A stretch of 30,342 nucleotides of DNA from a candidate division WOR-3 bacterium. Lineage in GTDB: Bacteria; Hydrothermota; Hydrothermia; B15-G9; WFZT01. Of the stretch, positions 22,664-30,342 are shown in pieces. The translations under genes and the position numbers were made by a program. Where the stretch lies: NCBI GenBank assembly GCA_027053075.1, contig JALUEE010000089.1:1-30342 (forward strand), read 5' to 3'. A model generated the notes under the pieces. That model saw only the letters and a list, made by a program, of their open reading frames with translations, had not been told where the DNA came from and made no database searches. Each line of letters opens with the position of its first letter. Position 1 is the first letter of the stretch.

Positions 22664-24400
22664 ATGAAGGAGATGGAAAGGGCAAATAACGTGACAGAGG
22701 AACCCAAAAACCCGAAAGGAGGTGATGAAATAGGATTCGTTGAGTTGTTGGAGGAAAAGCTAAACCCTCCCAAAGAGGGAGAAATAGTAAAAGGTACGAT
22801 TGTAAAGGTCGTGCAGGATGAGGTTTACATTGACATAGGTGCAAAGTCAGAAGGAGTTGCACCTAAATCCGAGTTCAAAGAGGAAGAACTCGAGCCCGGG
22901 AAAGAGGTATTCGTTTACATAGACGCCCTTGATGGAAGAGATGGCAGAACCATAGTCTCCAAGCACAAGGCGGACTTTCTGCGTGCATGGGATAAAATAA
23001 AGGAGGCTTACCAGTCCAATCAGACCATCGAAGCCAAAGTGTTAAGAACAGTGAAAGGTGGTCTGATGGTCGAGGTCTTTGGAGTAAACGCCTTCCTGCC
23101 GGGATCACAGCTCGATCTCACAAGAGTTAAAAATATCCCGTCCTACGTAGGTAAAACCATACCTGTCAAAGTCATCAAGATCAACAAGGCACGCAAAAAC
23201 ATCGTGGTTTCCCGCCGCGAAGTGCTCCTCGAGGAGCAGGAAAAGCTCCGTCAGAAGCTTATGGAAATTCGCCCGGGCGATGTCATCGAAGGTGTCGTGA
23301 AGAACGTAACAGACTTTGGCGCATTCGTTGATATTGGTGGTATTGACGGTCTGATTTACATTTCTGAGCTCTCCTGGACAAAAATCGGACATCCCTCTGA
23401 GGTGGTCAAGCCTGGAGATAAAGTGAAGGTAAAGGTTCTCGAGGTTGACCCTGAAAATATGAAAATTTCTCTGAGCCTCAAGCTCTTACAGCCACATCCG
23501 TGGGAAAAGGTCAAAGAAAAGTATCCAGTTGGCACAACTGTTCGCGGAACTGTTAAGAAAATCATTGACTACGGAATTTTTGTGGAGCTCGAACCGGGTA
23601 TCGAGGGATTCGTTCACATTTCTGAGATGAAATGGGGTAAACCCCCGAGACATCCATCTGAGGTGGTGAAGGAAGGTGCTCGTGTCGATGTAGTCGTGCT
23701 TAACGTGGATATCGAGAAACAGAGAATTTCCCTCGGTATGAAACAGGCCCAGCCTGATCCGTGGGCACTTATCGAGGAAAAGTATCCTGTAGGTAGCATC
23801 GTTAAGGGTGTCGTAAAAGAGTTTGAAAACTACGGGGCCTACATCGAGCTTGAGGATGGCATTGAAGGATTCCTGCACGTTGCGGATATTTCATGGACTC
23901 AGAAATTTGCCAAGCCTGAAGAGGCGCTGAGAAAAGGCCAGAAACTTAGACTCAAGGTTTTAAAAATTGACAAGAAGAAGAGACTACTCGATCTTGGACT
24001 GAAGCACCTCTCACCCAATCCATGGGATGAAATTGAGGCAAAAATACCGCCTGGCACACACCTCAAGGCTCCTATCAAGCAGATCACCGATAAAGGTGTC
24101 GTAGTCGAGGTTGATAAGGGACTTGACGGCTTTGTAGCTGTCTCCCATCTGCAGAAAAAAGGTGACCCTGCGAAAAATTATCAGGTTGGAGAAGAGCTCA
24201 ACCTGCAGGTTATGAAGATTGAGCCAAAACGTAAGAGAATTCTGCTTTCTGAGAGGGAGTACTACAGGGCCAAAGAGAAAGAAGAGGTCGCCAGGTACAA
24301 GCCCGAGCCTGCAAAGATTAACCTTGGTGAAATTCTGCAGGCTGAGCTTCAGAGAATCGAGGAGCTCAAGGAAGAGGAAGAGAAGTCTCAGGAAGAGTAA
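22664..24400 (+). CDS. rpsA: 30S ribosomal protein S1
   Basis: Six S1 repeats (DIGAKSEG, AFLPGSQ, DFGAFVDIGGIDGL, DYGIFVELEPGIEG, etc.). Confidence 0.97.
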   Translation: MKEMERANNVTEEPKNPKGGDEIGFVELLEEKLNPPKEGEIVKGTIVKVVQDEVYIDIGAKSEGVAPKSEFKEEELEPGKEVFVYIDALDGRDGRTIVSKHKADFLRAWDKIKEAYQSNQTIEAKVLRTVKGGLMVEVFGVNAFLPGSQLDLTRVKNIPSYVGKTIPVKVIKINKARKNIVVSRREVLLEEQEKLRQKLMEIRPGDVIEGVVKNVTDFGAFVDIGGIDGLIYISELSWTKIGHPSEVVKPGDKVKVKVLEVDPENMKISLSLKLLQPHPWEKVKEKYPVGTTVRGTVKKIIDYGIFVELEPGIEGFVHISEMKWGKPPRHPSEVVKEGARVDVVVLNVDIEKQRISLGMKQAQPDPWALIEEKYPVGSIVKGVVKEFENYGAYIELEDGIEGFLHVADISWTQKFAKPEEALRKGQKLRLKVLKIDKKKRLLDLGLKHLSPNPWDEIEAKIPPGTHLKAPIKQITDKGVVVEVDKGLDGFVAVSHLQKKGDPAKNYQVGEELNLQVMKIEPKRKRILLSEREYYRAKEKEEVARYKPEPAKINLGEILQAELQRIEELKEEEEKSQEE

Positions 24401-24449
24401 GGCCTGACCGGCGAAAGAGAGTAATTTAAAACCTTTAAGGAGGCTAAAA

Positions 24450-25091
24450 ATGCTTGGGACAGTACTGCTGATGGTGCAGTTAAGTATATCGCCGGTCAGT
24501 GCAGATAGCGTGCTTCAAAAGGCCATGAACGCCTTTGAGGCACTGCACGATTATCAGACCACCCTCGTGAGCCACATGATAAAAGGGAAAAAGAAAGAAG
24601 ACCGCGTCTACCTATACAAGTTCATGAAACCCCACTGGATTTACATGAAGGTGATCAAAGGAAAAGACAAGGGAGCTGAAATTGTCTATAATCCGATTAC
24701 CAAAAAGATTCGCGCGCACAAGGGTGGCCTATTATCAAAGATAAAACTCACACTTGACCCGACAGATAAAAAAGTTCTTTCCTTAAGAGGTCACCGCGTG
24801 GATAGAACAGACTTCGGCTCCATCCTCTCACAGTGGCTAAAGGTGAAGGATAAGGTTAAAGTCGTAGGAATCGGCGGTAGAGTTGACGGCATAGAGTGCA
24901 CCGTCCTCGAGGCGGACAATCTGAATCCGGCTGAGTGGCATGGGGCTAATAGAGCAAAACTCTATATCAGGACCGACAACAACCTACCTTACGTGAGAGA
25001 GGAATACGAGGGTGATAAGCTTGTACACAGAGCTATTTACAAAGACCTCAAAATTAATGTGGGATTGACTGAGGATGATTTTAAAATGTAA
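24450..25091 (+). CDS. Exported LolA-like / DUF1571-like protein
   Basis: Signal peptide, DYQTTL, FMKP..IYMK, C-terminal YKDLKINVGLTEDDF typical of LolA-fold proteins; AAGGAGG SD. Confidence 0.7.
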   Translation: MLGTVLLMVQLSISPVSADSVLQKAMNAFEALHDYQTTLVSHMIKGKKKEDRVYLYKFMKPHWIYMKVIKGKDKGAEIVYNPITKKIRAHKGGLLSKIKLTLDPTDKKVLSLRGHRVDRTDFGSILSQWLKVKDKVKVVGIGGRVDGIECTVLEADNLNPAEWHGANRAKLYIRTDNNLPYVREEYEGDKLVHRAIYKDLKINVGLTEDDFKM

Positions 25092-25666
25092 TGCCCGCTC
25101 CTTCATACCTTCTTAAGCCTTTAATTTTTGCAATTTCCATCTTAATGATAGAGTGGGGAATCTTCCCCACTCTTTTTGTTTTTATCGCCCTCCTGAGTTT
25201 TCTTTCAGGGGCAAAATTCACCATATCCTGCCTGAAATTGACGCCATCCCCATCTTTATCAATTATAACAATCTCAGTGGTTCTCATTTCTGCCCTCATT
25301 GGTATCTTCACAAAAACATTAAATTTCATCACTCCCTGGTGGTATGTGCCTTACAGCCTTGTTTGGGCCATCTTTCAGGAGTTCATCATTTTTTGCTTCA
25401 TTTTCGAGAATTTTGAGTGGGCCTTCGCTGGAAAGCACACGGCCGTCTTCCTGACAGCGACAACTTTCGCAGTTTTCCACCTACCCAATCCTTTTCTTGT
25501 TCCGGCAACATTCATCATGAATCTCATTTTCTCAGGCTATTACAGAAGACACAGATCAATTCTGCTTCCCGGACTCCTCCATTTTGTTCTTGCGATAGCC
25601 GCATTTACCTTCTTACCATTTAGTCTTACTCATCAGCTCAAGGTGGGCATCCAGTGCTGCAGATAA
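25091..25666 (+). CDS. CPBP (CAAX/Abi) intramembrane protease-like protein with degenerate motifs
   Basis: Multi-TM; QEFIIF in place of EExxxR, FAVFHLP, R.RSILLPGLLH. Confidence 0.7.
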   Translation: MPAPSYLLKPLIFAISILMIEWGIFPTLFVFIALLSFLSGAKFTISCLKLTPSPSLSIITISVVLISALIGIFTKTLNFITPWWYVPYSLVWAIFQEFIIFCFIFENFEWAFAGKHTAVFLTATTFAVFHLPNPFLVPATFIMNLIFSGYYRRHRSILLPGLLHFVLAIAAFTFLPFSLTHQLKVGIQCCR

Positions 25667-26433
25667 TCGGTGCAATCCCATACTTTTTGATCTTTGTTCC
25701 CTGGTACAGACGGTGGATGGAGAAAAGATTCTCTTATCTGTGGTGCCTCGTATTCACCATTCCTGTTCTCCTATATTCCGTCACAGGATTCCTCCTGTTT
25801 GTCGCATTCTCCGTAGCCATTTTACTTGCGACGAAAATTCGGGATGAGAGACTGCGGGATGCAGTCTTATTCTTCCTTATCTGGCTTCCTGTCGAATTTA
25901 ACCTGCTTCCCATGACCGACCTGAATTCCGGCAGATTCATTGGCTACTTCGTCGTGCTCTCAATCTTCTCACACGTTCTGCTCTATAGGATTCGCCCTCA
26001 GGGTCTCGGCTTCACAATATTCCCGGTAAAATGGAAACTCGTGGGACTCGCCTATCTCGTGCTTTTCACAATAATTGCACCTATTGGCCTCAATACCGGC
26101 TTCATAGTTTTTCATCCCAGGCTCACGACCACCAATTTACTTTCCTTCTTCGCCATCTATTTTTTCGTGGCATATCCTGAAGAGATGCTCTTTCGCGCGT
26201 TTTTGTTCAAAATACTTAACCCCTTGAGTACAGCGTGGAAGATTGCCATTTCATCACTGATATTTGGACTTGCCCACTTCAACGGCCCCCACGGAGGACT
26301 TATTTACATGCTTCTTGCCACCATCGCCGGGGTTGGCTACGCTTACGTATTTGAAAAGTCAGGGGACGTTAACTCTTCTGCTCTTATTCACACCCTTGTT
26401 GACTACACATGGGTGTTATTTTTCGGTGGTTAG
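25654..26433 (+). CDS. CPBP (CAAX/Abi) intramembrane glutamic protease
   Basis: PEEMLFRA, SSLIFGLAH, ATIAG..YA, HTLVD. Confidence 0.88.
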   Translation: MLQIIGAIPYFLIFVPWYRRWMEKRFSYLWCLVFTIPVLLYSVTGFLLFVAFSVAILLATKIRDERLRDAVLFFLIWLPVEFNLLPMTDLNSGRFIGYFVVLSIFSHVLLYRIRPQGLGFTIFPVKWKLVGLAYLVLFTIIAPIGLNTGFIVFHPRLTTTNLLSFFAIYFFVAYPEEMLFRAFLFKILNPLSTAWKIAISSLIFGLAHFNGPHGGLIYMLLATIAGVGYAYVFEKSGDVNSSALIHTLVDYTWVLFFGG

Positions 26434-26452
26434 ATGGATTATAATTTGCACC

Positions 26453-27313
26453 GTGCTCAATTCCGAACTCATCTCTAAGGTAAAACCGCTAAGATTGAGG
26501 GCAAGGCTTATTGTAGAAGGATTCCTCACAGGACTCCACAAGAGCCCTTACCACGGATTTTCTGTTGAATTCAAGGACCACAGGAGCTACAACAAGGGAG
26601 ACGAGATACGCTGGATCGACTGGAAGGTGTATGCTCGAACCGACCGATTTTACGTAAGACGCTTTGAGGATGAAACCAACCTCATGGCATACATTCTCCT
26701 GGATAACTCCGCATCCATGGGATTTGTCAGGGAAAAATTCGAATACGCTGTGAACCTCGCCTCTGCAATCTCCTATCTCCTGTTTCTCCAGAGAGATGCC
26801 TTTGGACTTGCCGTTTTTAACGAGAAAATAGAGACCCTTGTGCCTCCACGCACATCAAGGGTAAACTTGAGCCACGTCATGTCCATTTTAGATGGGCTCA
26901 AAACCCATGGACAAACCGAGCTTTCGTCCTTTAGGGTGCTTGCAGAAAGGCTGAAGAAACGCGGACTCGTAGTTCTTATCTCTGACATGATGAAGGAGCC
27001 AGAGGAGATCATAACGGGCCTCAGAATGTTCCGCTATCGCAAGCATGAGGTCATCGCTTTCCAGATCCTTTCACCTGAAGAAACAAAGATTTCCGGCAGG
27101 GCAAGGGTCTTTGAAGACATGGAAACGGGTGAGCGAGTCCCATTTGACCCGGTTAATCTGCAGAACGAGTATCAGGAGCGTCTTAAAAACCATATCGAGC
27201 ACATCAAAAAGGAGCTCCGTAAAAGCAACATAGATTACGAATTTTTCCTTACTTCCGAGCCCATCGAGCTCGCTCTTTACAGATTTTTCAAGAAGAGGGA
27301 AAAACTGAGATGA
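26453..27313 (+). CDS. DUF58 / vWA domain protein (MoxR-associated family)
   Basis: GLHKSPYHGFSVEFKDHRSY.GD.IRWIDWKVYART, FEDETN, LDNSASM, VLISD. Start placed at GTG 26453; the longer ORF overlaps the upstream gene. Confidence 0.92.
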   Translation: MLNSELISKVKPLRLRARLIVEGFLTGLHKSPYHGFSVEFKDHRSYNKGDEIRWIDWKVYARTDRFYVRRFEDETNLMAYILLDNSASMGFVREKFEYAVNLASAISYLLFLQRDAFGLAVFNEKIETLVPPRTSRVNLSHVMSILDGLKTHGQTELSSFRVLAERLKKRGLVVLISDMMKEPEEIITGLRMFRYRKHEVIAFQILSPEETKISGRARVFEDMETGERVPFDPVNLQNEYQERLKNHIEHIKKELRKSNIDYEFFLTSEPIELALYRFFKKREKLR

Positions 27314-28986
27314 GTTTCCTGAATCCGGGATTTCTCTACCTCCTGCCACTTGTGGCACTCCCTTTTATCATCCATTTATTTGCAGCAAAGGTGCAGAGAC
27401 GGGCAAAATTTTCGTGGGTACGCCTCTTAAGGAGTGCCCAATATGAGGGGAAAAAGCGAAGACGCCTGCTCGAGATTCTTATCCTCATTCTGAGAAGCCT
27501 CGCTATCCTGAGCCTCATAATGCTTGCAGCAAGGCCATTCCGGGGTGAGCTTTTCAAATTTAGATACTTCGTGGTGGACTTCTCCCCCAGCGCAAGGCAC
27601 GACACATCAAAAATTTTCTCCATCGCAGAAAAGGTCAAAAGCAAGGGGCTTGATGTTTATTTTCTTGATGACAGGCTCTATGAGAAGCCGGTTATATACG
27701 ACATGCCCGCCCGTTTTAAAAAATTAGGAAGCCTTGGGAAACCTGCCATCATTTTGAGTGATTTTCAGAGTTCCAATGTTTCAGATTTCAAGGACACAAG
27801 TTTTCTTGCGGTAAAGCTCAGACCACCCCGAGATGAGCTTAAAGTCCTTGGAGTGAGGGTTCAGCCCGGAATTACCATGCAGGGCTTTGAGGCAAGCTTA
27901 AAGGTATTCCTGAAGGCAACCCGTCGGATGGCAGTTAGACTTAATCTTTATCGAGAAGAAAAACTAATTGCCGGTGGCAACTTTGAGGTTAATCCTGACA
28001 GTGTGAACCAGCTAAACCTCAAATTCATCCCGGAAAAGGGAGGTATATGGAAGGTAGAAGTGCTCCCGCTCGATGAACTGCCGCAGGACAATGTTAGATA
28101 CTTTAACCTCACCGTGCTCGAAAGGCTTCGCGTGGGAATTATAGGAAACAACAGATTTATTGCAAGAGCATTGAATCCCTTCCGGATAAAAAATTACCCC
28201 GTTCAGGTGACAGAGAATATTCAGACAAATTTTGCAGGATTTGACGCGATCTTCCTCACCAATCCCGATTTACCTCTTGAGAGGCTCATCATGGTAATCC
28301 GCTACGCTGAATCCGGTGGAAACTTAGTGATTTTTACCGATAAGATCACAGCCCCCATCATCAACGCCCTTGGACTTAATATCGAACCGGTGGAATCGGC
28401 TAAAGTGGTAATTGAAAAGGATACCCTGACCTTCCCACGGGCTATTGCTTTTGGGGACGGGAAGGCCATCCTCGGGGACTCAAAGGGGAAAAAAATTGCA
28501 GTAATCAAGCCATTCTCAAAAGGCAGACTCGTCCTGGTGGGTCTGCCTGCGGATGTCAGCGAAACTTTATTCCCCATATCTCCATCATTTGTTCCGTTTG
28601 TTTATTCATTGCTGGAAAGGCTCTTTAACGTCAAAACAAATACCCGTGTAACCACCGCTGGCACCCCCTGCATTTCCATTATAGATTCAAACCTGACGGT
28701 TGTTACACCTGAGGGGAAAAGAGCGTCCTGTAAGGACTTAAACTTTCCGAAAGTAGGATTTTACCGTGGAAAGTGGAGCTTTGGAATAAATCTTCCTCCA
28801 TCTGAAGCAGAGGAGAGGTTTTTAAGTGACAAGGAACTTGACGACCATTTCAAAGCACATACATCGCTTGAAAATTTCGAAAATATTGTCAGAAGCTCCC
28901 GCAGTTTCACGTTAATCTTTGTCTATTTCCTGATCTTCTACGTCCTCGTCGAATCCCTCATACTTGGGTGGAAATTTAGATTGTAA
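27310..28986 (+). CDS. BatA (N-terminal double-TM) domain membrane protein
   Basis: MSFLNP.FL.LL..ALP.IIHL, FS.V.LL, LILILRSLA...AARP, degenerate vWA (D.SPS, ILSDFQ), DN.RY, C-terminal TM. Confidence 0.85.
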   Translation: MSFLNPGFLYLLPLVALPFIIHLFAAKVQRRAKFSWVRLLRSAQYEGKKRRRLLEILILILRSLAILSLIMLAARPFRGELFKFRYFVVDFSPSARHDTSKIFSIAEKVKSKGLDVYFLDDRLYEKPVIYDMPARFKKLGSLGKPAIILSDFQSSNVSDFKDTSFLAVKLRPPRDELKVLGVRVQPGITMQGFEASLKVFLKATRRMAVRLNLYREEKLIAGGNFEVNPDSVNQLNLKFIPEKGGIWKVEVLPLDELPQDNVRYFNLTVLERLRVGIIGNNRFIARALNPFRIKNYPVQVTENIQTNFAGFDAIFLTNPDLPLERLIMVIRYAESGGNLVIFTDKITAPIINALGLNIEPVESAKVVIEKDTLTFPRAIAFGDGKAILGDSKGKKIAVIKPFSKGRLVLVGLPADVSETLFPISPSFVPFVYSLLERLFNVKTNTRVTTAGTPCISIIDSNLTVVTPEGKRASCKDLNFPKVGFYRGKWSFGINLPPSEAEERFLSDKELDDHFKAHTSLENFENIVRSSRSFTLIFVYFLIFYVLVESLILGWKFRL

Positions 28987-29093: not shown

Positions 29094-29120
29094 TTTACCC
29101 ATTCCACCCCGGCCCTCCCT
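29094..29120. repeat. Left half of the REP-like repeat, interrupted by IS110
   Basis: TTTACCCATTCCACCCCGGCCCTCCCT is 25/27 identical to 485-511. Similarity ends inside the left arm of the palindrome. Confidence 0.7.
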
Positions 29121-29179
29121 CCTATAATGTTTGTTGTTATTTATTAGGGTTATCACTCACAATATAGAGAAAAACTTTA

Positions 29180-29355
29180 GGGGAGGTGGAATGAGTGGTT
29201 TTTAGATCTTTCCCCTCCTTGGGGCTTGACCCCGGCGGGAAGATTGGTCCCTCCACCTGGGGTATAAGCCTGGATTGTTATTTGTGCCTGAATCACTCGA
29301 TTCAGGAGGTTAGGCTATACCCACTTCGGTGGAGGATTCCACTCTCCACCTCCTC
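29180..29355 (+). ncRNA. Candidate IS110 bridge/seek RNA
   Basis: Closing stem 29182-29198 with 29339-29353. Hairpin 1 at 29205-29245 and hairpin 2 at 29250-29335 each have an internal loop; loop sequences resemble the insertion junction. Folded by eye only. Confidence 0.65.
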
Positions 29356-29379: not shown

Positions 29380-29991
29380 ATGGATAAGTTATATGTAGGC
29401 ATAGACGTAAGCTCAAAAGAACTATTCGCCTCCTTCCTCGATGATAATTCAAACCCCGTCATATCCTCCGCTAAATACCCCAATACCCCTGACGGCTGGC
29501 ATGACATCTCCCAACTCATATCCTCACTCTCCAAAAACTTCAAAATCGTCTGCGGCCTCGAATCCACCGGTGACTTCCATATCGGTATCCTACACACCCT
29601 CGAAGCCATGGATAACATTGAAGTTCATCAACTCAACCCCGCATCCGTCCGTTACTTCGCTAAAGCACTCAACGTCAGTGCCAAAACTGACCGTATCGAT
29701 GCTCAAATTATAGCCCGCTACCTGGCCACTATCAAACCTCAGGGAGACTATCACGTTCCACTCTTCCTCCAACGCCTGCGTCATCTCGTTCGCATAAGAC
29801 GTACCTTCATAGAGAATATGGCCTCTTTAAAAAATCAATTGTACCATATACTGAGAATTTATTTCCCTGGATACAGGATTCTTGTGAAGAGTGGGTTACC
29901 TATCAGTTTTCTACACATACTCCAGAGATTTCCATCACCACATTTAATACTGGGAGCTGGAGAAGAGGAATTAATGAAGATAAGGGTTGGG
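29380..29991 (+). pseudogene. IS110-family DEDD transposase/recombinase, N-terminal ~204 aa
   Basis: YVGIDVS, GLESTG, NPA, AKTDRIDAQIIA; AGGAGG SD before ATG 29380. The C-terminal catalytic-Ser domain is cut off; the frame reads into IS3 and stops at 30021. Confidence 0.92.
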
Positions 29992-30216
29992 TGTCAAGTC
30001 CTGAAATGTGTTGACATTTAAAAGGGGGACTCCCCTCAGCATGGCCTACCTCCTCTCTTCACCTCAAATCCCTCTATCTCTACCTCCCCACTGTACACCT
30101 CACTCGGCGTCGCATACCCCAACGACTGATGCGGCCTCTCCTCATTGTACAACTCTATCGCCTCCTCCACAGCACCCCCTATCCCACTCTTAAATACTTC
30201 TTCCAATCCGTTATTC
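29992..30216 (-). mobile_element. Second, shorter IS3-family 3' remnant
   Basis: Reverse complement of 244-467 with one substitution and a 1-nt insertion; starts TGTCAAGTCCTGAAATGTGTTGACA. Confidence 0.88.
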
Positions 30217-30342
30217 GGGTGTTAGAATAATTTTGTGTAAGGAGTACAATATAATACTCCCCCAGGTCCGTAGGACCTGGGGGCAAAAATTACATCATAA
30301 GGAGGTTCTACTATGACTGATTATAACACAAACCAGCATAAA
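30217..30342 (+). mobile_element. Left end of the probable IS256-family IS (second copy), transposase start at 30313 running off the window
   Basis: Exact reverse complement of 1-126; AAGGAGG at 30299-30305, ATG at 30313. Confidence 0.6.

Follow-up and report, generated by a model that had tools for sequence, protein, structure and literature searches.

Near one end of the window—the whole stretch of 30,342 nucleotides that was analyzed, from a candidate division WOR-3 bacterium—an interrupted IS110 recombinase gene is preceded by a non-coding stretch that folds into two hairpins above a closing stem. The question is whether this stretch encodes a bridge RNA, as an initial annotation of the locus had proposed, and which of its letters act as guides. 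We read it, with a probability of about 0.88, as the left, non-coding terminus of an IS110-family element, likely to encode a bridge RNA of the IS621 type. The bridge RNA at 29180..29355 is a well-supported and likely candidate, a new example of a mechanism already known. Since bridge RNAs are predicted in approximately 86% of the catalogued IS110-group elements, according to the available text of PMC11208160, finding one here is expected. The basis is sequence: element boundaries, core, four guide–DNA matches, covariation, and conserved stems; every feature of an IS110 bridge RNA that can be tested in this way is present.

The element, its ends, and its copies

The recombinase of the window features the residues D9, E61, D104, and D107 and lacks the serine-bearing C-terminal domain. 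Homology to its siblings ends at 29990, and the gene is interrupted at 29991. The siblings on contigs C14 and C98 encode a 431-aa protein with both PF01548 and PF02371 and the residues D9/E61/D104/D107/S314; at full length, this protein scores above the NCBIfam cut-off of NF033542 (IS110). The PF01548 match and the two-domain siblings bear out the proposal of an IS110 element; its bridge-RNA-like left end is supported as well. The end of the interrupting 225-bp repeat is found eight times in the genome, and its integrase fragment stays under the NCBIfam cut-offs. The foreign repeats of 29992-30342 recur at the other end of the contig (window 1-467), and many IS110 copies are broken or bordered by further IS elements (C23, C52, C61, C109, L031, and L036), which together explain the contig breaks. 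Upstream, at 22664-28986, same-strand genes encode an S1-domain protein, a DUF1571 protein, two CAAX-protease-like proteins, a DUF58 protein, and a BatA-domain protein—a run that directs transcription into the element. Among the plasmid matches listed (60, spread), the named ones are ISBth13, ISSfl4, ISEc20, IS1000B, ISKpn42, ISEc32, ISMno29, and IS621, all 24–33% identical to the recombinase. No match came from a first genome-collection scan that used one protein alone, from a viral scan, or from a strict search of plasmids.

The genome itself carries 14 left and 12 right ends of the element in two variants, A (the window type) and B, the proteins of which are over 90% identical. The left ends read CT-CCT-ATAAT in nine cases (variant A, the window included) and CT-TCT-ATAAT in five (variant B). 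Two copies are complete, both of variant B (C14 and C98), and C14 measures 1741 bp counting both cores. The right ends have a length of about 180 nt and all 12 carry TTGACA, then 14 letters ending in ATTGTT(A/G)T, and then CT; the finish is TATTGTT(A/G)T-CT throughout, with ATTGTTAT in front of CT in 11 of them. The finish TTTGTG(C)CT that had been predicted from the left end alone occurs in none of them. CT follows all 12 right ends and precedes 13 of the 14 left ends, the exception being C98 with one extra T. The left ends of 13 siblings, the two complete copies, and the empty repeats thus fix the core at 29119-29120, and the CT core of the initial annotation, common to left ends, right ends, and complete copies, stands. 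The two cores 3 nt apart that it had found puzzling are explained by the first letters of the left end itself, Y-CT.

No variant-A copy is assembled whole; A left ends were tied to TCC-flanked right ends only via counts (nine versus eight) and empty repeats, and no assembled right end is assignable to the left end of the window copy. The empty orthologous site was sought in 30 relatives, of which only G004 matched, and there the sequence past the upstream gene is unrelated. Comparing the contigs of four DNA runs with the complete C14 lists eight element-skipping joints, one of which spans exactly 1739 (the element plus one core). Their sides comprise just 21–27 letters, so they probably represent other copies of the repeat. 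A circle (going-back) joint is absent among these eight joints from the contigs of the four runs, contigs being prone to lose rare forms.

At three of the 14 own left junctions (C50, C56, and C22 of this genome, G000) and at one junction of G004 (L027, G004:C80), the letters with which the element begins (CCT for A, TCT for B) stand once more as an extra triplet; two empty A-type repeats also carry an extra CCT, and none was seen for B. The triplets possibly go back to slippage between two CT dinucleotides 3 nt apart. At 29380-29450, comparison with C23, C14, and L039 reveals that left-end type and recombinase N-terminus are shuffled among copies: in the window copy, a left end of type A goes together with an N-terminus resembling that of B, a pattern that suggests recombination among copies.

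The TTGACA of the right ends could serve as the −35 box of a junction promoter, and seven distant homologues have the two hexamers spaced by 17 nt as judged by motif match. In situ, no + strand promoter was found at the left end. The sub-terminal inverted repeat is complementary at 11 of 11 positions to six of the 12 right ends and at 10 of 11 to the other six. It is weaker in eight homologues (4–11 of 12), and the covariation of its middle 4 nt is marginal (14/32, p = 1820/40320).

Table. Coordinates of the features at the left end of the element and its surroundings (window numbering)
Feature	Position	Strand	Basis or remark
Left arm of host palindromic repeat (subtype 2), target	29100..29118	+	arm at approximately 65 other places
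Left target GCCCTCC	29112..29118	+	part of the subtype 2 left arm
CT core dinucleotide	29119..29120	+	copy homology starts there; CT at both ends of C14
Right donor, first left-end letters CCT (TCT in variant B)	29121..29123	+	core + 3 letters = reverse complement of right donor guide, 13/13 elements
−10 box TATAAT of predicted junction promoter	29123..29128	+	on the circle, at 18 nt from the −35 TTGACA of the right end
Left copy of the 11-bp sub-terminal inverted repeat	29124..29134	+	complementary to right ends
Closing stem, 5′ strand	29182..29198	+	pairs with 29339-29353
Predicted target-binding loop	29205..29249	+	outer stem GATC/GGTC, inner stem 29220-24/29230-34; consensus fold, pair counts
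Left target guide, in two registers shifted by 1 nt	29211..29220	+	TCCCCTC-CT at 29211-29219; CCCCTCC-TT at 29212-29220
Right target guide	29234..29244	+	GGAAG core part 29238-29242, extension 5′ of core part, handshake AT 29243-29244
Predicted donor-binding loop	29250..29335	+	basal stem 29250-57/29328-35, inner stem GTG/CAC (29284-86/29294-96)
Left donor guide ATTGTTAT and two core-facing letters	29274..29283	+	guide itself 29274-29281
Right donor guide AGGAG and handshake GT	29304..29310	+	AGGAG 29304-29308, GT 29309-29310
Closing stem, 3′ strand	29339..29353	+	fold and pair probabilities
IS110 recombinase gene, first 203 codons	29380..29990	+	PF01548, E = 2e-24
225-bp multicopy repeat with integrase-core fragment (IS3/IS481-like)	29992..30216	.	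interrupts recombinase; PF13683, E = 1e-7
Second multicopy element, its end, running off the contig	30217..30342	.	9 copies, mostly at contig ends

Fold and guides of the predicted left-end RNA

The 176-nt region 29180..29355 folds at −89.4 kcal/mol (z = −6.14), a value that none of 200 shuffles equals, and within the window, no Rfam family reaches its gathering score. The fold shape of the initial annotation is hereby reproduced, and the letters it quotes (all arms, the text of the junction, CCCTCCT at 29117-29123, and AGGAGG at 29304-29309) are found where it had placed them. Relatives were gathered from G004, three metagenome loci, and 28 genome loci. The alignment consists of 15 left ends: three own, two of G004, two from the three metagenome loci, and eight from the 28 genome loci. 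Outside the alignment are three more L054 copies (junctions only), L058, in which a loop is deleted, five loci where the left end is incomplete, the more distant L066, L068, and L069, which the model still matches, and eight very distant loci without a model match.

The closing stem pairs 29182-29190 with 29345-29353 and 29193-29198 with 29339-29344 at probabilities of 0.88–1.0. In folds constrained to keep the loops open, an equivalent of 12–21 pairs occurs in 15 of 15 homologues, as does a donor basal stem of 6–10 pairs; the closing stem of the initial annotation thereby proves to be conserved. In the consensus fold, the target loop is closed by GATC/GGTC and TGGGG/CCCCG and the donor loop by GCCT/AGGC and GTG/CAC, giving two stem/internal-loop/stem modules in the non-coding end. 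GATC/GGTC (29205-08/29246-49) pairs in 96.7% and GTG/CAC (29284-86/29294-96) in 100% of the cells of the 15 homologues, with two-sided changes. Over all four guide-flanking stems (16 pairs), 98.8% of the cells pair—as high as in none of 500 shuffles, with slid controls at 26–54%—and two-sided changes occur in eight of the 16 pairs, 37 in all; the consensus structure was derived from the same alignment, which biases these counts in its favor.

The naked window RNA favors GATCTT/AAGATT (0.52–0.68) over GATC/GGTC (0.31) and GAATC/GATTC (1.0) over GTG/CAC (0.0). These favored stems are the ones drawn in the initial annotation; they hold for the naked RNA of the window and pair in just 54% and 61% of the cells, respectively, across the 15 homologues. 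The open-loop form lies approximately 19.5 kcal/mol above the minimum-energy fold, and in the naked RNA, the AGG of the right donor guide is predicted to be buried. The protein would need to remodel this fold into the open-loop form.

Both target guides match and covary with the insertion sites—the right one clearly, the left one with a register of ±1 and poorly at three of the five B sites. In register 29211-29219, the left target guide matches 6–7 of 7 letters at six of the nine variant-A sites and 5 of 7 at two; in register 29212-29220, it matches 6 of 7 at the window's own site. Over 11 elements (one per guide), p is about 2e-4 as the best of three registers (±1), and a single fixed register yields 0.009–0.019 (one) or 0.17–0.37 (other). 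The A guide outscores the B guide at nine of nine A sites; the B guide wins at two of five B sites only and matches 1–2 of 7 letters at three of the five (two registers scored). The complement of the right target guide, CT-TCC, fits the empty repeats and eight of the 12 right junctions; in the eight elements with both ends, cognate pairs score 43/56 versus a permuted mean of 31.3 (p = 2/40320, a kind of value that overstates independence since the elements are kin). These matches uphold the assignment of hairpin 1 as the target loop. The match of CCCTCCT at 29117-29123 to the target, put forward earlier, is out of register: it runs across the junction and takes in CCT letters that belong to the element. 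Taken together, the two junction matches of the initial annotation (7 nt direct, 6 nt complementary) recur in 227 of 1000 dinucleotide shuffles and, therefore, prove nothing alone.

Matches and covariation also link the donor guides to the joined ends. The left donor guide was placed at 29274-29281 because all 12 right ends finish as given above; it is identical to the eight letters before the core in 11 of them. Cognate pairs score 50/56 versus 40.6 in the same eight kindred elements (p = 48/40320), and the guides ATTACA, ATTGCA, and ATTATAT of relatives each track their own right end. The real right ends match the 5′ part of the left strand of hairpin 2, and not the 3′ part that had been proposed. 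Wherever a left junction is available (13 of 13 elements), the right donor guide agrees with the letters of the left end, and three types occur: AGGAG, AGAAG in variant B (left end TCT), and GGGAG in L060 (CCC); just two variable positions test this match since the left-end search pattern already held most core and right-donor letters. Of AGGAGG, previously taken as the guide for the left end, the first five letters are the right donor guide and the sixth is a handshake base. Hairpin 2 as the donor loop is supported by this covariation and by the comparison of right ends with the loop, on which the assignment had been staked beforehand.

The handshake letters obey the rule of IS621, as given in the available text of PMC11208158. 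In the target loop, the A is invariant and stands opposite T in all right ends. Of the 14 own junctions, 13 have the donor-loop G opposite C at target position 7, a pair that has changed to T opposite A in L055, L056, L064, and L065; at 11 distant junctions, the donor-loop letter forms seven Watson–Crick and two wobble pairs with position 7 and is unpaired in two. The register appears to vary by ±1 in both loops. Three guides distinguish variant A from variant B: those for the left target, the right target, and the right donor. Other left target guides and mixed left/right guide combinations, which largely fit their own insertion sites, occur in L027, L028, and L031 (G004) and in L041.

Host repeats, proposed mechanism, and alternative readings

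The IS110 copies are flanked by arms of palindromic intergenic repeats. Subtype 1 (NCCCCTC-CT-TCC; 101 strand-wise pattern matches) hosts eight of the nine A copies. Subtype 2 (CCCTCC-CT-TCC) has 67 matches, and the window copy is inserted at its equivalent CT; elsewhere, the left arm of this subtype is almost always followed by CT-TCC and the complementary arm. After the core, subtype 2 reads TCCC in 32 of 67 and TCCCG in 10 of 67 cases. The repeats hosting B copies continue with CT-CCCCC. The right flank is CT-TCC in variant A and CT-CCCCC in variant B (eight versus four of the 12 right junctions), and the junctions differ in step with the guides. Among the A copies, the window copy alone lies in subtype 2, and it alone reads GGCGGGAAG at 29234-29242, where all five other A copies that cover the guide have GGTAGG. 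A possible explanation for this single case is retargeting.

From the available accounts of IS621 (PMC11208160, PMC13626964, 10.64898/2026.08.31.748434) and CazIS110-1, we infer a sequence of circle formation, transcription from the junction promoter, RNA-guided pairing, and strand exchange at CT. The circle would join the TTGACA of the right end to TATAAT at 29123, and the resulting promoter would drive an RNA starting near 29135, which the recombinase would bind, opening both loops. Target selection would fall to hairpin 1 and recognition of the element's joined ends around the CT core to hairpin 2; the left guides would pair with the bottom strands and the right guides with the top strands. 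Strand exchange at CT would then insert the element into the palindromic host repeat. Any activity of the window copy would need enzyme from the complete siblings since its own recombinase is truncated and without the serine domain.

The hairpins could instead form a structured 5′ leader or terminator that controls recombinase expression, with junction matches merely reflecting a shared C/T-rich composition. The chance-level rate of the two original junction matches would agree with this, as would the single terminator-like site in the region, which equals chance expectation in these low-complexity sequences. Four guide segments and the handshake letters, however, covary cognate-specifically across homologues of 40–53% recombinase identity and differing compositions, and variable unpaired loops sit between covarying stems; a leader or terminator is, hence, hardly credible. 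A different account of the same locus, which we regard as improbable, takes as working guide a processed target-loop-only RNA of approximately 70–80 nt (the seekRNA type), leaving the donor hairpin relevant only in a minor full-length species. It draws on CazIS110-1, where a 77-nt RNA of this kind makes up 90.4% of the bound transcripts, and on other elements, where seekRNAs of 70–100 nt dominate, as described in the accessible text of 10.1101/2025.10.25.684509 and PMC11187229, respectively. Against it, the donor guides covary with the element ends, the closing stem links both loops in 15 of 15 homologues, and, in the CazIS110-1 assays as reported in that text, truncated RNAs alone gave no excision or integration (10.1101/2025.10.25.684509).

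The window copy by itself may be an inert remnant of a family that uses the bridge RNA, at slightly under even odds, the two changes in its right target guide then being decay. This concerns the window copy alone and is compatible with a bridge RNA at the level of the family. The interruption of the recombinase at 29991 and the lack of a detectable + strand promoter in situ point this way, as does the restriction of GGCGGGAAG to the window, set against GGTAGG in the other five. Yet the stems and guides of the window copy are all intact, and the complement of its variant guide, CT-TCCCG, fits its own repeat subtype at the TCCC and TCCCG frequencies given above, in what is one case. Read-through transcription is, moreover, sufficient for excision of IS621 (PMC13626964, available text), and the upstream gene is directed into the element.

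Comparison with known systems and distant relatives

Known systems are compared here as far as the available text of the cited papers describes them. With IS621 and ISCro4 (IS622) (PMC11208160, PMC11208158; PDB 8WT6, 9T56), the element shares a DEDD and serine recombinase, a left-end RNA (predicted here), the CT core, the target loop before the donor loop, and the left guide before the right in each loop. Handshake letters, a junction promoter (predicted here), and insertion into palindromic intergenic repeats are also common to both. The RNA body measures about 176 nt versus 177 in IS621. The recombinase comprises 431 aa versus 328–341 in the solved IS621/ISCro4 chains, to which it bears a distant similarity (E about 1e-23). 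Both loops sit on a predicted closing stem here, whereas IS621 is described as a 5′ stem-loop with two more stem-loops after it; the IS621 paper notes diverse bridge RNA structures (PMC11208160). The inverted repeat has 11 bp versus 2–3 bp, the promoter spacer is 18 nt here, and the register of the guides seems to shift by 1 nt.

ISPpu10 and ISPpu9, the REP-targeting IS110s of Pseudomonas putida (10.64898/2026.03.19.712850, PMC12288879), likewise target many hairpin-forming intergenic repeat copies. ISPpu10 has the same CT core, ISPpu9 an AG core, and both use other repeat families and guides; here, the target hairpin consists of the left arm and the right flank. The IS1111 group (seekRNA; PMC11187229) shares sub-terminal inverted repeats (11–13 bp there) and a junction promoter (predicted here). 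Its RNA is usually downstream of the gene with the top-strand guide first; here it is upstream with the bottom-strand guide first. In that group, the ends extend by 7 (left) and 3 (right), compared with 3 (left) and 6 (right) plus core here. CazIS110-1 of a thermophile (10.1101/2025.10.25.684509) is likened by description: a multicopy IS110 with a two-loop bridge RNA of approximately 170 nt, for which copy-out and direct-transfer pathways are described. Further papers on the subject are 10.1101/2025.05.14.653916 and 10.64898/2026.08.14.744561, as far as available.

An RNA-bearing non-coding region upstream of the gene and a bottom-strand guide in first place are features of the IS110 group. 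The sub-terminal inverted repeats of that group are absent or short and imperfect, in contrast to the 11 bp here, and a search with the left-end model found no long RNA-bearing non-coding region downstream of the gene, the arrangement of the IS1111 group. Because of the 11-bp inverted repeat, the placement in the IS110 or the IS1111 group is left open, which does not affect family membership. A literature search of main texts, with figures and supplements outside its scope, found no paper on an IS110 bridge RNA built on a three-way junction, which may nonetheless be in print.

Tentatively, and with less than even confidence, the element may belong to a distinct sub-lineage of bridge recombinases. 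This would combine a left-end RNA with both loops on a three-way junction, IS1111-like inverted repeats of 11 bp, and guides sliding by one base; distant members would insert into and rebuild Shine–Dalgarno sequences, and a vent lineage would have shifted its target to hairpin repeats of the host and diverged inside a single genome into variants whose target and donor guides differ. If true, this would be natural reprogramming caught in progress. In three respects that can be put to the test, the element departs from the IS621 model: the closing stem, the long inverted repeat, and the sliding register. The first two of these and the co-resident variants with different guides are modest oddities. 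Variants A and B represent a natural swap experiment on target and donor specificity. The value of the system is practical and comparative, given complete 431-aa recombinases of a hydrothermal-vent organism with resolved ends, core, and guides.

At eight of 11 distant junctions, an opposite-strand ATG lies 4–13 nt from the core and opens a frame of at least 170 codons or one running off the locus. These insertions upstream of opposite-strand start codons (L051, L054, L055, L057, L060, L061, L064, and L065) fall inside a Shine–Dalgarno-like sequence, the AGGAG of which is rebuilt by the left end. Elements of the IS900 type show similar targeting. A literature search of main texts, with supplements outside its scope, found no paper on IS900-type insertion at ribosome binding sites.

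The model derived from the aligned left ends matches only upstream of genes, plus one orphan; weak matches in G006 and G008 were rejected, being located inside long reading frames. The orphan is a bridge-RNA-like copy without an adjacent recombinase (model E = 5e-11) and occupies the same locus in two species—G000:C33:137134-137311 (L078:1135-1312) and G004:C180:1745-1922 (L079). No such copy was detected where it would be expected in G001, G002, and G005, and its predicted target has no match in the genome. It may be a remnant or a trans-acting copy. The orphan keeps the variant-A donor loop and has a perfected closing stem, with the right target guide inside a 14-bp inverted repeat. A parallel is found in the orphan small-RNA copies of ISPpu9 away from the transposase (ssr9), as described in the available text of the ISPpu10/ISPpu9 papers.
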